From assembly GCF_003334335.1 (NCBI RefSeq), contig NZ_QOWQ01000083.1: a stretch of DNA of 3,513 nucleotides. One strand, 5' to 3'. Below, one piece after another: positions 272 to 3,465 of this stretch. The notes below the pieces were generated by a model that ran no database searches, was not told where the DNA came from, and saw nothing but the letters and a program-made list of their open reading frames with translations. Within the stretch, counting starts at the first letter, position 1; each line of letters starts with the position of its first letter. A program made the translations under genes and the position numbers. Origin of the DNA: Escherichia coli. GTDB taxonomy: Bacteria > Pseudomonadota > Gammaproteobacteria > Enterobacterales > Enterobacteriaceae.

Positions 272-697
272 TCAATGCACAACAACAGCATTACCAGGCT
301 GACCACCACTGTTAGTCAGGGTGCCCCAGGCGATCGCTACAGCGACAAAATCATCCACATCTTTCACCAGCCGATCCCGTCGTTCGACGATCTCCCGGTA
401 ATATTCAGAACTGTGACTGCGCATACGGGCCACCAGCAAAGGCGGCATCGCCTTTTCGATCGCCGGTAACAGAGCCTGCATTTTTTCAACAGCATCAGGG
501 GTGTCTTTATCCAGCCAACGGAAAATTTTCTGGGTATTACGGGCCAGGGCTTCCGGATGGCTGTCGTCATACAGTTCCGGGAACGTCATTCCCAGCTCGA
601 AATACGCTTTGGTAATTTTCGCAGCCGGTACTTTTTCGCCGTCCGGATGCGCCCAGACATTCATCGCCATGCGGATGTGTTCATGCTTGATTTTCAT
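272..697 (-). CDS. ydaT: YdaT-family protein (CII-like prophage regulator; historically annotated 'putative toxin YdaT')
   Basis: 141-aa ORF starting MKIKHEHI..., which matches my recollection of the YdaT N-terminus of Rac-like prophages. Its start overlaps the upstream cro-like gene by 17 bp (681..697), implying translational coupling, in the cro-then-cII order of lambdoid phages. Confidence 0.8.
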   Translation of the reverse strand: MKIKHEHIRMAMNVWAHPDGEKVPAAKITKAYFELGMTFPELYDDSHPEALARNTQKIFRWLDKDTPDAVEKMQALLPAIEKAMPPLLVARMRSHSSEYYREIVERRDRLVKDVDDFVAVAIAWGTLTNSGGQPGNAVVVH

Positions 698-953
698 GAA
701 TCAACTCCGGTGCATTTGATGTGTTAACCTTGAATCCAACAGGTAAACCATCGGTTGGGTTAGGATAAATATCAGGGCGAATTTCATGCGGGGTAACTTC
801 CCACTTCATTAGCTGACATAACGGAATTACCTGCTTTGGGGGAACGTCAAAGCTAAACCATTGCCAAACAGTCTGTTGAGCGACCCCCATATAACGACCT
901 ATTTCAGCTTGAGTGTATTTCTGCCTAATTTTTTCGCGAGTGCTATCTAGCAT
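681..953 (-). CDS. ydaS: Cro-like HTH DNA-binding protein (YdaS-like)
   Basis: 90-aa ORF with a helix-turn-helix signature (QAEIGRYMGVAQQTVWQW). GAGGAG Shine-Dalgarno lies upstream of ATG 953..951. It is divergent from the repressor gene at 1063 across a ~110-bp regulatory region and is followed by the overlapping ydaT-like gene. Confidence 0.7.
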   Translation of the reverse strand: MLDSTREKIRQKYTQAEIGRYMGVAQQTVWQWFSFDVPPKQVIPLCQLMKWEVTPHEIRPDIYPNPTDGLPVGFKVNTSNAPELIHENQA

Positions 954-987
954 TTTGCTCTCCTCTAAAAAACTATAAGCAAAGCCT

Positions 988-1025
988 ACAATAAAAAACT
1001 GTACACGATCAACAGTTTTTTATTG
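988..1025. promoter_or_regulatory. Operator-like inverted repeat in the divergent intergenic region (O site 1): CAATAAAAAACTGT-N9-ACAGTTTTTTTATTG
   Basis: Left half-site 988..1001 and right half-site 1011..1025 are reverse complements apart from one extra T, with a 9-bp spacer. The region 954..1062 must contain the promoters of the cro-like and repressor genes. Candidate -10 for the leftward promoter is TATAGT (reverse complement of 971..976). Candidate -10 TAAAAT at 1051..1056 would make the repressor mRNA nearly leaderless, as for lambda cI from PRM. Confidence 0.6.
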
Positions 1026-1062
1026 TGATGCTTTTAACAGTATTTACCTGTAAAATTGAATA

Positions 1063-1464
1063 ATGATGAACGCCCTAGAAGTATCTATGTACAGAATCAG
1101 CAAGCTTCTTCAGGAAACTGGATGGAGCCAGGCTGAGCTTGCCCGTAGAATTGGTGTGACACAACAAACTGTTCAACAATGGGTCAGCGGTAAGGCTACA
1201 CCTAAAGCCTCAAGTTTGGATAAACTGGTTGAGGTTACAGGGCATCCATTGCATTGGTTTTTATTGCCTCCTGAAGAGGGGGAGCAAATTTTCACCCCTG
1301 ACACGATGAAAATTGGTCCTCGTCAACGCGAACTGCTCCAGGCTTTTAGTGCGTTTCCAGAGGAAGACCAAGAAAAAATGCTTCAAGAAATCAAAGACAA
1401 GAAAAAATCAATGGAAGAAACCATTGCCCGGTGGTTGGCGGCACAAAAAAGCCGCCGGGCGTGA
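1063..1464 (+). CDS. paaR2: HTH-XRE family transcriptional repressor (CI-like); regulator of the three-component PaaR-PaaA-ParE toxin-antitoxin module
   Basis: 133-aa ORF with a classic XRE HTH (SQAELARRIGVTQQTVQQWVSG) in the N-terminal half and a Lys/Glu-rich helical tail. It is divergent from the cro-like gene and immediately upstream of the antitoxin-toxin pair. The paralog assignment (paaR2 versus paaR1) is from memory and unverified. Confidence 0.75.
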   Translation: MMNALEVSMYRISKLLQETGWSQAELARRIGVTQQTVQQWVSGKATPKASSLDKLVEVTGHPLHWFLLPPEEGEQIFTPDTMKIGPRQRELLQAFSAFPEEDQEKMLQEIKDKKKSMEETIARWLAAQKSRRA

Positions 1465-1491
1465 CCACAGTACAAGAAGAGGAGTTATGCC

Positions 1492-1683
1492 ATGAGTACA
1501 GCCCTTTCTCCGATAGTTTCAGAATTCGAAACTACCGAACAAGAAAACAGTTACAACGAATGGTTACGCGCTAAAGTGGCGTCAAGCCTTGCAGACCCTC
1601 GTCCCTCAATTCCACATGATGAGGTAATGGCTGAAATGGAGAATCTTATTGCTCAAATTGCTGTAACTAACAGGAGCGAGTAA
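1492..1683 (+). CDS. paaA2: Type II antitoxin of a ParE-family toxin (PaaA2-like, small and likely disordered)
   Basis: 63-aa ORF MSTALSPIVSEFETTEQENSYNEWLRAKVA..., acidic and low in hydrophobic core residues. AAGAGGAG Shine-Dalgarno lies 7 nt upstream of ATG 1492. Its TAA stop shares one base with the toxin start (TAATG at 1681..1685). Size and sequence match my recollection of PaaA2 from E. coli O157:H7. Confidence 0.75.
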   Translation: MSTALSPIVSEFETTEQENSYNEWLRAKVASSLADPRPSIPHDEVMAEMENLIAQIAVTNRSE

Positions 1684-1970
1684 TGTTACCCATTTTGTGG
1701 CTACCATCTGCTCGCGATGATTTCCGTCAGATCGTAGCCTATATTGCTAAGGAAAATATTCCTGCAGCACGCAGACTAAAAATACGGATTGAAACGTCTG
1801 TTTTAGCCCTCTCTGAGCATCCATATCTATATCCGCCAAGTGATCGAGTATCCGGTTTGCGGGAAATTGTGGTTCACCCTAATTATATCGTTTTGTACCG
1901 AGTAGCAGCTTCAAGCATTGAAATTGCAAATATTGTGCATGCCCGCCGACAATTTCCCTTCCCTATCTGA
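1683..1970 (+). CDS. parE2: ParE/RelE-superfamily toxin (ParE2-like)
   Basis: 95-aa ORF with the ParE-like pattern (N-terminal L-P-S-A-x-DF-x-Q-I-x-YI, central REIVV-x-P-x-YIVLYRV, C-terminal I-x-N-I-V-H-x-R-R). The start is coupled to the antitoxin stop, and CAGGAG Shine-Dalgarno lies 6 nt upstream. Confidence 0.8.
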   Translation: MLPILWLPSARDDFRQIVAYIAKENIPAARRLKIRIETSVLALSEHPYLYPPSDRVSGLREIVVHPNYIVLYRVAASSIEIANIVHARRQFPFPI

Positions 1971-1987
1971 ACTGAACAATTTTCACA

Positions 1988-2013
1988 CTCCCTCATTCGA
2001 GGGAGTTTTTTTT
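1988..2013 (+). terminator. Rho-independent terminator of the repressor-antitoxin-toxin operon
   Basis: Perfect 7-bp stem CTCCCTC (1988..1994) / GAGGGAG (1999..2005) with a 4-nt loop ATTC, followed by eight T (2006..2013), 18 bp after the toxin stop codon. Confidence 0.85.
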
Positions 2014-2023
2014 GCCCAACACA

Positions 2024-2067
2024 ACAATTAAAAACTGTTGACACAAAACAGTTTTTAATTGTAGATT
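2024..2067 (+). promoter_or_regulatory. Second copy of the operator inverted repeat (O site 2) overlapping a strong rightward promoter
   Basis: CAATTAAAAACTGT (2025..2038) and ACAGTTTTTAATTG (2048..2061) are perfect reverse complements with a 9-bp spacer, extendable to 15-bp arms at 2024..2062. Consensus -35 TTGACA (2038..2043) is built from the left half-site plus spacer, and -10 TAGATT (2062..2067) follows an 18-bp spacer. The half-site is the same as at 988..1025 apart from single-base differences. Confidence 0.65.
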
Positions 2068-2497: not shown

Positions 2498-2944
2498 CTA
2501 ACCACAAAGGAATCGCATCAATTTGGATTTTGCAGACAGTTTCTCTTGTTGTTCTACGGAGATTCCTATTTTGATCTGGGTTTTTAAGATTGCGATATCT
2601 TTAAGCGACGACCAAATATTATCATCTGTTTTTTCCAGGAGCTTTAACTGCATTTTCAATTCCGAATCGGAATATTTTTCTGCATCATCATAAAGCTGCA
2701 GATATTCTGCGGATTTTCTCATTGCGTTACCTGACTTTTGTCCGAATCCGTAAATCGTTTGAACGGTTGCTATCACAACAATGAGAACTCCAGAAACTTC
2801 AGGAATAAATCCACCAATGACAGATGAACCGAGGATAATACTCACCACTGAGAAAAGTTTATCGAGACGACCAGTCGCTACAGAGAATAGTTGTTCAAGA
2901 AAATAATCATATAAAACCCTGTCAAGAATATCATCCCGGTCCAT
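2498..2944 (-). CDS. Hypothetical small inner-membrane protein: N-terminal amphipathic segment, two predicted transmembrane helices, charged helical C-terminal tail
   Basis: 148-aa ORF with AGGTGA Shine-Dalgarno 6 nt upstream of ATG 2944..2942. Hydrophobic stretches LFSVVSIILGSSVIGGFI and GVLIVVIATVQTIYGF are separated by the short loop PEVS, then a Lys/Glu/Asp-rich tail follows. The gene is convergent with the YdfA-like ORF and visibly AT-richer than flanking genes. No homolog recognised from memory. Confidence 0.7.
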   Translation of the reverse strand: MDRDDILDRVLYDYFLEQLFSVATGRLDKLFSVVSIILGSSVIGGFIPEVSGVLIVVIATVQTIYGFGQKSGNAMRKSAEYLQLYDDAEKYSDSELKMQLKLLEKTDDNIWSSLKDIAILKTQIKIGISVEQQEKLSAKSKLMRFLCG

Positions 2945-3407: not shown

Positions 3408-3465
3408 CCATGTGTAGTATTTGGTGGCATCAGTTCTACTCCGTGACTGCTCTGCCACCCTTTTT
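3408..3465 (+). ncRNA. dicF: DicF-like prophage small RNA (cell-division-inhibitor sRNA family), 3' end defined by its intrinsic terminator
   Basis: TTTGGTGGCATCAGTTCTACTCCGTGACTGCTCTGCCACCCTTTTT is near-identical to my recollection of E. coli DicF (..TTTGGCGGTATCAGTTTTACTCCGTGACTGCTCTGCCGCCCTTTTT). The terminal stem differs by one compensatory change per arm (GGTGG/CCACC versus GGCGG/CCGCC). The 5' end is approximate because DicF is processed from a longer transcript, and the 5' ~15 nt do not match my memory of DicF. Confidence 0.55.
3423..3465 (+). terminator. Rho-independent terminator (3' hairpin of the DicF-like RNA)
   Basis: GGTGGCA (3423..3429) pairs with TGCCACC (3453..3459), with internal CAG/CTG pairing, followed by C then TTTTT (3461..3465). 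Orientation is + only: on the - strand the T-run would precede the stem. Confidence 0.6.

Follow-up and report, generated by a model that had tools for sequence, protein, structure and literature searches.

The window, the whole 3,513-nt stretch of Escherichia coli DNA analysed here, contains between positions 272 and 1970 the five open reading frames that the first-pass annotation had placed there, two on the minus strand and three on the plus strand, with a strong terminator after them.

272-697, minus strand: ydaT, encoding a CII-like regulator of 141 aa
681-953, minus strand: cro/ydaS-like gene, 90 aa, with the SD sequence GAGGAGAG and a 17-nt overlap with ydaT
1063-1464, plus strand: repressor gene of the PaaR1 type, DicA-like, 133 aa, with an N-terminal HTH_3 domain
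1492-1683, plus strand: paaA antitoxin gene, 63 aa
1683-1970, plus strand: parE toxin gene, 95 aa, with a TAATG overlap with paaA

Thus, a CI-like repressor gene is divergent from a cro-like gene and a CII-like ydaT gene, and a PaaA-ParE pair lies within the repressor operon. The first-pass annotation had described just this architecture and had judged the system to be of a described kind rather than a new one, and it was right on both counts. Loci that are 99.9% identical to the window contain the prophage context from int to Q. Very probably, the window holds the immunity region of a lambdoid prophage of E. coli; this region is of the CP-933M/Sp4 type and would be a heteroimmune sibling of that of CP-933P. 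The following control elements lie around the repressor operon.

966-1045: OR-like operator region, composed of an inner perfect palindrome and outer half-sites
988-1002 / 1012-1026: OR inner palindrome, ACAATAAAAAACTGT N9 ACAGTTTTTTATTGT
966-977 and 1036-1045: OR outer half-sites
982-1011, minus strand: candidate PR for the cro-like gene and ydaT, with -35 TTGATC (1011-1006), an 18-nt spacer, and -10 TAGGCT (987-982)
1049-1062, plus strand: candidate PRM -10, TGTAAAAT (hexamer 1051-1056), 6 nt before the repressor ATG, no SD
1987-2014, plus strand: intrinsic terminator of the repressor operon, with a stem-loop at 1987-2006
2024-2067, plus strand: OL/PL-like element with the palindrome 2024-2039 / 2047-2062, ACAATTAAAAACTGTT N7 AACAGTTTTTAATTGT
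2038-2067, plus strand: PL-like promoter, TTGACA (2038-2043), an 18-nt spacer, and TAGATT (2062-2067), overlapping the OL palindrome

The same palindrome is present at OR and OL. Its half-site, AACAGTTTTT, occurs six times (0.65 expected), and five of these copies are located in OR or OL. The operators are conserved in all loci whose repressor is at least 92% identical and are changed in diverged relatives, in which they co-vary with the repressor and still recur 3' of the repressor operon (loci L058 and L062). By sequence, the divergent repressor and cro-like genes share a multi-site operator, and a second operator set is present at the PL-type promoter; binding of both sets is predicted. The -35 element and spacer of PR are located inside the OR palindrome, the same layout as that of the PL-like promoter at 2038-2067. 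PR is a putative promoter with a weak match to consensus (7/12), which falls below the threshold of the promoter scan and was not called by it. The OL/PL-like element occupies the position that the tested PL933P fragment has in CP-933P. Its promoter is directed into an operon that contains DUF1391 and DicF (3409-3460) and leads to dicB; position 2067, where the first-pass annotation had ended the locus, is the end of the PL-like -10. The strong terminator that it had set at the end of the repressor operon lies 3' of parE and consists of an 8-bp stem followed by eight T (-13.8 kcal/mol, z = -3.65).

The repressor has a Pfam HTH_3 domain (E 4.3e-13) and is related to the 434 repressor (E 2e-5). 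A Pfam scan found no Peptidase_S24 domain in it, and the Sp4 repressor is likewise reported in the literature to have no peptidase domain. The DicA subfamily model, NCBIfam NF007257, aligns with the whole protein (E 4e-14), but at 52.6 bits the match does not reach the curated cut-off of 101 bits, and membership in the DicA subfamily was rejected. PADLOC matches were to generic HTH proteins only and were uninformative. Because the PRM -10 is only 6 nt from the ATG and there is no SD, the repressor mRNA is predicted to be leaderless. The same geometry (GATAAT-6 nt-ATG) is found at paaR2 of CP-933P, whose mRNA is leaderless by 5'RACE. The arrangement TGTAAAAT-N6-ATG is kept in the intergenic regions of repressor relatives at 82-67% identity; a relative at 49% identity (L066) instead has TGTATAAT followed by 7 nt.

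The two genes that follow the repressor gene encode, as had been supposed, members of the PaaA and ParE families. The 63-aa product matches PaaA2 (PDB 3zbe, E 1.5e-22) and NCBIfam NF050103 (96 bits, cut-off 50), and PF21217 PaaA2 is recorded for the 63-aa gene at the same position in the loci 99.9% identical to the window. The 95-aa product falls inside the ParE fold (Pfam ParE_toxin, PF05016, E 2.7e-15; ParE2, PDB 5cw7_B, E 3.9e-37). Consequently, the locus has the elements of a PaaR-PaaA-ParE system: a ParE-fold protein, a small PaaA antitoxin whose gene is directly 5' of parE and overlaps it, and an upstream regulator gene, with co-transcription of the three genes predicted. Distant relatives of the repressor either have no toxin-antitoxin pair or have other cargo instead, which supports the description of the pair as a passenger. 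Relative to its Sp4 counterpart, parE has a dS of 1.36, which marks it as a different allele imported by recombination, and a dN/dS of 0.06, which rejects diversifying selection on ParE. The low dN/dS points to purifying selection, an indirect sign only of the predicted toxicity of ParE, its specific neutralisation by PaaA, and post-segregational killing. A 148-aa open reading frame gave no match in Pfam, NCBIfam, or PADLOC, and its AlphaFold2 model has a pLDDT of 53, too low to support a search by fold.

What the pair does for the prophage can be considered in two other ways. It is possible, but unlikely, that it serves chiefly as anti-phage cargo (abortive infection or exclusion), like RexAB, rather than in addiction or stabilisation. 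The pair does occupy the slot equivalent to that of rexAB, between the repressor gene and OL, and it would be expressed together with the lysogenic repressor; in relatives, alternative uncharacterised cargo fills this slot. However, PADLOC gave no matches for the pair, and the homologue in CP-933P acts through post-segregational killing to stabilise plasmids, with no defence phenotype reported. There is still less to recommend the idea that paaA-parE is an autonomous, self-regulating ParDE-like module, transcribed from a promoter of its own, that happens to lie beside an unrelated repressor gene. Although such a module would fit the 27 nt that separate the stop codon of the repressor gene from the start codon of paaA, and also the finding that a CP-933P toxin-antitoxin reporter is transcribed in both switch states, the 63-residue PaaA has no DNA-binding domain; a sequence scan revealed neither a promoter-like site nor a terminator between the repressor gene and paaA, and the single terminator follows parE. 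Furthermore, paaA-parE is present in every one of the 41 loci with a repressor identity of at least 92%, and paaR2-paaA2-parE2 of CP-933P is a three-gene operon. The evidence favours an addiction-type passenger of the repressor operon.

By sequence comparison, the closest system to that of the window is ECs_1069-ECs_1067, ECs_1070, and ECs_1071 of the Sakai prophage Sp4, a second, paralogous system of O157:H7; the Sakai record places the ECs_1069/ECs_1070 locus inside Sp4. Sp4 has the same gene lengths and order, operator palindromes, terminator, and PL layout as the window, and the proteins are 97.7% (repressor, ECs_1069), 97.8% (Cro-like, ECs_1070), 90.5% (PaaA, ECs_1068), 85.3% (ParE, ECs_1067), and 80.9% (YdaT) identical. 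The flanking genes, the integration site (next to potC/potD), and the downstream cargo differ. Since there are two such loci per O157:H7 genome and a statement on CP-933M has been published, elimination leaves Sp4 as the presumed counterpart of CP-933M with PaaR1-PaaA1-ParE1. Its genes are presumably those named paaR1-paaA1-parE1, the system that CP-933M is said to carry.

The first-pass annotation had matched the locus to PaaR2-PaaA2-ParE2 with YdaS and YdaT of CP-933P. This held for YdaT and its box and failed for the repressor, the Cro-like protein, and the operators. With a genuine CP-933P-type locus (L004) as the reference, the repressor shows 33.6% global identity, and a BLASTP alignment covers only residues 37-133; the C-terminal two-thirds of the protein are homologous to PaaR2 (E 1.5e-20). 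Given this identity, the different length (133 aa versus 123 aa in CP-933P), and the different N-terminal DNA-binding region, the repressor was rejected as a PaaR2 ortholog. The Cro-like protein (Pfam YdaS_toxin, E 2e-9; phrog_35) falls, like the YdaS of CP-933P, within Pfam PF15943. It is nevertheless only 16% identical to that protein (90 aa versus 100 aa) and has no BLASTP match to it, and orthology was rejected on these grounds; a PDB search with the Cro-like protein also gave no match. PaaA is 65% identical to PaaA2, and ParE (95 aa versus 92 aa) is 64-66% identical to ParE2. The intergenic region between the cro-like and repressor genes is 109 bp here and 97 bp in CP-933P, and the sequences are unrelated. 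In a motif search, the CP-933P operator motif GTTTAGTAA was absent from the OR and OL control regions, its sole match in the window being a one-mismatch, chance-level occurrence at 2404.

That the locus is the CP-933P one, or orthologous to it, is therefore highly improbable. In its favour are a shared gene order, a YdaT identity of 91.5%, an identity of about 100% in the DNA from about 342 to 708, and the rank of PaaA2 and ParE2 as top PDB matches of the toxin-antitoxin pair; against this stand the protein identities, the differing lengths, the unrelated operator sequences, the missing motif, and the far better match to the other O157:H7 locus, that of Sp4, and the CP-933P assignment was rejected. 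Two further features show where the resemblance begins and ends.

687-704: YdaT operator box (OM), TTGATTTTCATGAATCAA, which covers the start codon of ydaT together with the 3' end of the cro-like gene
about 705-2075 (about 709-2074): swapped immunity cassette, between the end (about 708) and the resumption (about 2075) of near-identity to CP-933P

As this near-identity is found on the two sides of the cassette, the segment from about 709 to 2074 has been swapped, and the window is a natural recombinant in which a CP-933P-type ydaT and its box are joined to a cassette of the Sp4/AR_0017 type. Among the regulators and operators, CP-933P-type features are confined to YdaT and the TTGATT-N6-AATCAA box. 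YdaT (phrog_163, CII-like; PDB 8bt1, E 4.9e-83) is itself mosaic: it shares codons 1-119 with CP-933P YdaT but not the 22 residues at its C terminus. The protein is closer to the YdaT of L004 than to that of Sp4. The box matches the published site exactly (chance expectation, 0.01), is conserved in all four reference loci, and has the position of the footprinted OM of CP-933P. The window conserves just the initial 40 bp of the 120-bp PRE933P fragment that had been tested. YdaT-dependent activation of PRE is only putative here, since the downstream 80 bp, which must hold the core promoter, are unrelated; no convincing -10/-35 was read at 705-800. The database names "YdaS_toxin" (Pfam) and "toxin YdaT family protein" (NCBI) would make YdaS-YdaT a second toxin-antitoxin pair of the window, a notion that is scarcely credible given that CP-933P YdaT is a non-toxic promoter activator, CP-933P YdaS binds operators, YdaT is a POU-like DNA-binding tetramer whose defined operator is exactly matched in the window, and PHROG classes both kinds of protein as transcription regulators.

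Experiments on the CP-933P sibling provide the basis for a mechanism for the window cassette, in which DNA binding, bistability, PRE activity, and toxicity are all predicted. The 133-aa repressor would be transcribed with paaA and parE from the PRM-like promoter, as in lambda cI-rexA-rexB. The repressor and the Cro-like protein would compete for the AACAGTTTTT-type palindromes at OR (988-1026) and OL/PL (2024-2067), giving a bistable switch that would also gate the DUF1391-DicF-dicB early-left operon. As the analogue of CII, YdaT would bind its box and set off antisense transcription in the direction of the repressor gene; ParE would be neutralised by PaaA. A broader and quite tentative reading combines the observations on cargo and on YdaT. 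In S24-less lambdoid immunity cassettes with a PaaR/DicA-type repressor, exchangeable cargo may generally be housed between the repressor gene and OL/PL: PaaA-ParE in some lineages, in others unrelated, uncharacterised proteins (120 and 134 aa), and occasionally nothing after a deletion in one step; the cargo may provide a lysogen-expressed defence or exclusion function like that of RexAB, rather than addiction alone; and YdaT plus its box may be a portable establishment unit that works with any adjacent heteroimmune cassette.

The system is of a known kind, yet it represents the sister type (CP-933M/Sp4) rather than the well-studied CP-933P. Recognizing this corrects a plausible misidentification. 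Because neither the DNA-binding parts nor the operators are related, and the identity of PaaA and ParE is only about 65%, the data on PaaR2/YdaS operators, immunity, and antitoxin specificity are not transferable to this locus. The window does provide a natural heteroimmune partner, with clearly readable operators, for the one experimentally dissected system of the type. The recombination junctions are located just outside the cassette, which is relevant to a published proposal in which the toxin-antitoxin pair guards the immunity region against replacement. The same immunity region is also present in an Stx2-family prophage, where a repressor with no autocleavage domain bears on the induction of toxin production.

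Among known systems, the CP-933P/Sp12 immunity region, with PaaR2-PaaA2-ParE2 and YdaS/YdaT (Jurenas et al. 2021; Prolic-Kalinsek et al. 2023), shares with the window OR, PL/OL, an ATG 6 nt after the -10, and a toxin-antitoxin pair in the repressor operon. The two regions have the same DNA-binding domain in YdaT and an identical OM box, and the C-terminal half of the repressor, PaaA, and ParE are homologous. In contrast, the Cro-like proteins are not detectably similar, and the HTH region of the repressor and the OR/OL operators are unrelated, so the two regions are predicted to be heteroimmune. In the DicA-DicC-DicF-DicB region of the Qin prophage, the likeness lies in the repressor, through the DicA model, and in DicF and dicB, which are found in the PL-type operon of the window; the dicA operon of Qin is not known to carry a toxin-antitoxin pair. 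Lambda cI-rexA-rexB/cro/cII follows the same logic, with its genes in the same order: the repressor operon carries non-essential cargo and stops short of OL/PL, the cro and cII analogues are divergent from it, and replication genes come next. The sequence relation to lambda is limited to the HTH, and the cargo there is RexAB rather than a toxin-antitoxin pair. The lambda repressor contains an S24 autocleavage domain (RecA-stimulated, SOS inducibility), unlike the repressor of the window, and while lambda has three 17-bp operator sites, the window has one long palindrome flanked by outer half-sites.

The five reading frames are all present where the first-pass annotation placed them, and the terminator with which it closed the repressor operon is also found:

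272-697, minus strand: ydaT, 141 aa, matching PDB 8bt1 (E 4.9e-83)
681-953, minus strand: cro-like gene, 90 aa, Pfam YdaS_toxin (E 2e-9), PHROG 35
1063-1464, plus strand: HTH repressor gene, 133 aa, HTH_3 domain (E 4.3e-13)
1492-1683, plus strand: PaaA-family antitoxin, 63 aa, matching PDB PaaA2 3zbe (E 1.5e-22)
1683-1970, plus strand: ParE, 95 aa, Pfam PF05016 (E 2.7e-15) and PDB ParE2 5cw7_B (E 3.9e-37)
1987-2014, plus strand: intrinsic terminator 3' of parE, an 8-bp stem followed by eight T residues (folding energy -13.8 kcal/mol, z = -3.65)

The cro-like gene and ydaT share a 17-nt overlap, and the paaA and parE frames overlap in TAATG. The 63-aa protein scores 96 bits against NCBIfam NF050103 (cut-off 50). 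This, together with the structural matches, confirms the proposed similarity of the two small proteins to the PaaA and ParE families and places the 95-aa product within the ParE/RelE fold. A Pfam search found no S24 peptidase domain in the repressor, and thus, RecA-mediated cleavage is not expected; the repressor of Sp4, a prophage of O157:H7 Sakai, is likewise reported to lack this domain (Asadulghani et al.).

The locus had also been matched to the PaaR2-PaaA2-ParE2 system of prophage CP-933P and its YdaS/YdaT regulators. A CP-933P-type locus (L004; O157:H7 chromosome, 2.18 Mb) was retrieved through the exact YdaT sequence of PDB 8bt1 and agrees with published CP-933P in having a 97-bp intergenic region with GTTTAGT repeats and a repressor that starts with MQKKE. 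YdaT of the window is 91.5% identical to its counterpart there, residues 1-119 being identical. In contrast, the Cro-like protein is 16% identical with no BLASTP match, and the repressor is 33.6% identical overall, with BLASTP aligning only residues 37-133 (42% identity, E 1.5e-20). PaaA is 65% and ParE 64-66% identical, and the published CP-933P operator motif, GTTTAGTAA, was not found in the control regions of the window. Given these low identities and the missing motif, the window is not the PaaR2-PaaA2-ParE2/YdaS locus; what survives of the match is the described kind of system and its YdaT.

Sliding comparison and two alignments reveal a mosaic. From about 342 to 708, the window is roughly 100% identical to CP-933P, a similarity that ends 4 nt past the YdaT box. 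A cassette of the type present in Sp4 and E. coli AR_0017 then extends from about 709 to 2074, and near-identity to CP-933P returns at about 2075, directly after the PL-like -10. Alignment to CP-933P within the cassette is confined to paaA, parE, and the 3' half of the repressor gene, with nucleotide identities of 52-82%. Since CP-933P-like flanks surround an Sp4/AR_0017-type cassette, the window is, as judged from these alignments, a natural recombinant in which a CP-933P-type ydaT and its operator have been joined to a heteroimmune cassette.

The cassette itself is composite. Compared with L003, the O157:H7 locus of the Sp4 type, parE (window 1700-2000) has 72-82% nucleotide identity, whereas the adjacent repressor gene and paaA have 94-100%. 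Likewise, dS relative to Sp4 is 1.36 for parE (dN/dS 0.06) and 0.08-0.16 for the repressor gene, the cro-like gene, and paaA. The parE values argue against diversifying selection and for the import of a divergent allele under purifying selection. Because parE alone has diverged while its neighbors are near-identical, a recombination breakpoint falls inside the toxin-antitoxin operon, and thus, on sequence grounds, the antitoxin and toxin genes have different histories. The C-terminal 22 residues of YdaT (codons ~120-141, window 272-340) are unlike those of the CP-933P, Sp4, and AR_0017 alleles. Together with the start of CP-933P DNA similarity only at about 342, this indicates that ydaT contains a second recombination junction, close to where the tetramerisation helix ends.

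An exact copy of TTGATT-N6-AATCAA, the operator published for YdaT, occurs at 687-704 (0.01 expected by chance); its position at the ydaS/ydaT junction is the one seen in CP-933P. Of the 120-bp PRE933P fragment that had been tested, the window shares just the first 40 bp (669-708), and the other 80 bp, which must hold the core promoter, are unrelated. Consequently, antisense transcription towards the repressor under activation by YdaT is, by analogy, rated no higher than plausible. In two other loci, L006 and L007 (4023-5004), the exact CP-933P YdaT lies beside an entirely different immunity pair, made up of a CI of 238 aa with an S24 peptidase domain and a Cro of P22 type, and no toxin-antitoxin pair was found beside it. 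The presence of the same YdaT next to unlike immunity pairs shows that ydaT is a module freely combined with heteroimmune cassettes.

The divergent intergenic region of 109 bp contains a perfect palindrome, ACAATAAAAAACTGT-N9-ACAGTTTTTTATTGT (988-1026), and further elements of the operator region (OR):

966-977 and 1036-1045: outer OR half-sites
1011-982, minus strand: putative PR, TTGATC-18-TAGGCT, laid out as PL and weak by consensus

A near-identical palindrome, ACAATTAAAAACTGTT-N7-AACAGTTTTTAATTGT, is located just past the terminator (2024-2062), where it overlaps the best σ70-like site of the window, TTGACA-18-TAGATT (2038-2067, plus strand). With one mismatch allowed, the half-site AACAGTTTTT occurs 6 times (0.65 expected), 5 of these in the OR or OL regions. 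Mapping of the published primers shows that the PL933P fragment used in those tests corresponds in position to window ~1975-2070. No SD precedes the repressor ATG (1063), which is located 6 nt downstream of TGTAAAAT, a geometry equal to that of CP-933P paaR2, whose leaderless start was mapped by 5'RACE (GATAAT-6 nt-ATG).

By analogy with the CP-933P experiments, the repressor and the Cro-like protein would bind the OR and OL palindromes in competition, generating two heritable states. When the repressor is on, PRM would drive its expression together with that of paaA and parE; PaaA, which lacks a DNA-binding domain, would neutralise ParE, and the toxin would be freed if the cassette were lost. 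PL would lead into DUF1391, DicF, and dicB. The DicF sRNA (Rfam RF00039) is present at 3409-3460, plus strand (62 bits versus a gathering score of 48, E 1.9e-12, full-length model), in a PL-type operon upstream of dicB, which in the E. coli assembly L008 starts ~135 nt past the window end.

Fifty IMG/VR loci encoding relatives of the repressor were compared. At repressor identities of at least 92%, all 41 loci have, deletion remnants included, a downstream paaA-parE and window-type half-sites at OR and OL. In two of the 41 (L044 and L056), a single 352-nt deletion (~window 1549-1900) has fused the beginning of paaA with the terminal part of parE, removing toxin and antitoxin in one step and sparing the repressor gene, terminator, and OL/PL. 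Relatives at 67% identity carry the pair, no toxin-antitoxin pair was found in relatives at 82%, 69%, and 49%, and in L058 and L059 the same slot is filled by unrelated ORFs (120 and 134 aa). In phage Tritos, L006, and L007, the same flanks enclose other CI/Cro pairs without a toxin-antitoxin pair. These losses, replacements, and swaps favor the earlier reading of the pair as a passenger of the repressor operon, and the sequence comparison supports its placement in a cargo slot equivalent to that of rexAB in lambda. Cro-like identity follows repressor identity, and YdaT varies independently (37% to 100%). The intergenic repeats of L058 and L062 are unlike those of the window yet recur downstream of the repressor operon, so the putative operators co-vary with the repressor. 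Relatives at 82-67% identity keep TGTAAAAT-N6-ATG, and a variant, TGTATAAT, stands in its place in the relative at 49%.

The best complete-genome match, AR_0017 (L001), has identical (100%) repressor, Cro-like, and PaaA proteins and a 97.9% identical ParE. Five E. coli assemblies (L008-L012) are at least 99.8% identical across the whole window; there, the element is a lambdoid prophage inserted beside potC/potD. Four have the full order int, exoVIII, dicB, 148-aa ORF, DUF1391, parE, paaA, repressor, cro-like, ydaT, DnaT-like O, P ... Q; in L010, the parE-paaA-repressor interval has a single called frame, a 36-aa remnant. One of these genomes, L008 (GCA_018032785.1; 99.97% identical over 3513 nt), has Stx2-family toxin genes past Q (18877-20112), encoding an A subunit (RIP, 319 aa) and a B subunit (SLT_beta, 87 aa). 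This is therefore an Stx prophage that carries a ParE toxin-antitoxin pair and whose governing repressor lacks an S24 autocleavage domain.

Six GTGAC motifs (plus strand; starts 19, 30, 41, 51, 61, and 71) lie within 19-75 at a helically phased spacing of 10-11 nt, inside the first ~60 codons of a DnaT-domain O-like replication gene (ATG at 203, minus strand). This iteron-like array is a possible origin or initiator-binding site. Neither the best-matching complete genomes of E. coli (L001-L004) nor deposited phage records contain segment 2408-3199, which carries this frame:

2498-2944, minus strand: 148-aa ORF, antisense to the PL operon

Its product has two neighboring hydrophobic helices (~30-47 and 50-68) and only 23 homologues, all Enterobacteriaceae hypotheticals. 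No match was found in Pfam, NCBIfam, or PADLOC, the sole PHROG match is a family of unknown function, and the AlphaFold2 model has a pLDDT of 53. It may be a membrane-protein moron.

O157:H7 genomes contain two copies of a paaA-parE-like pair. CP-933M of EDL933 carries a homologue of the PaaR2 system (mBio 2021). With only two loci in O157:H7, the second, L003, is by elimination the CP-933M/Sp4 paralogue. Its products are 100% identical to those of Sakai ECs_1067 to ECs_1071, annotated within 'prophage Sp4, lambda-like phage'. The names paaR1-paaA1-parE1, reportedly from Hallez et al. 2010, presumably belong to this second system. The L003 gene lengths are exactly those of the window, and the proteins are 97.7% (repressor), 97.8% (Cro-like), 90.5% (PaaA), 85.3% (ParE), and 80.9% (YdaT) identical. 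The locus is an allele and recombinant of an already known kind of system.
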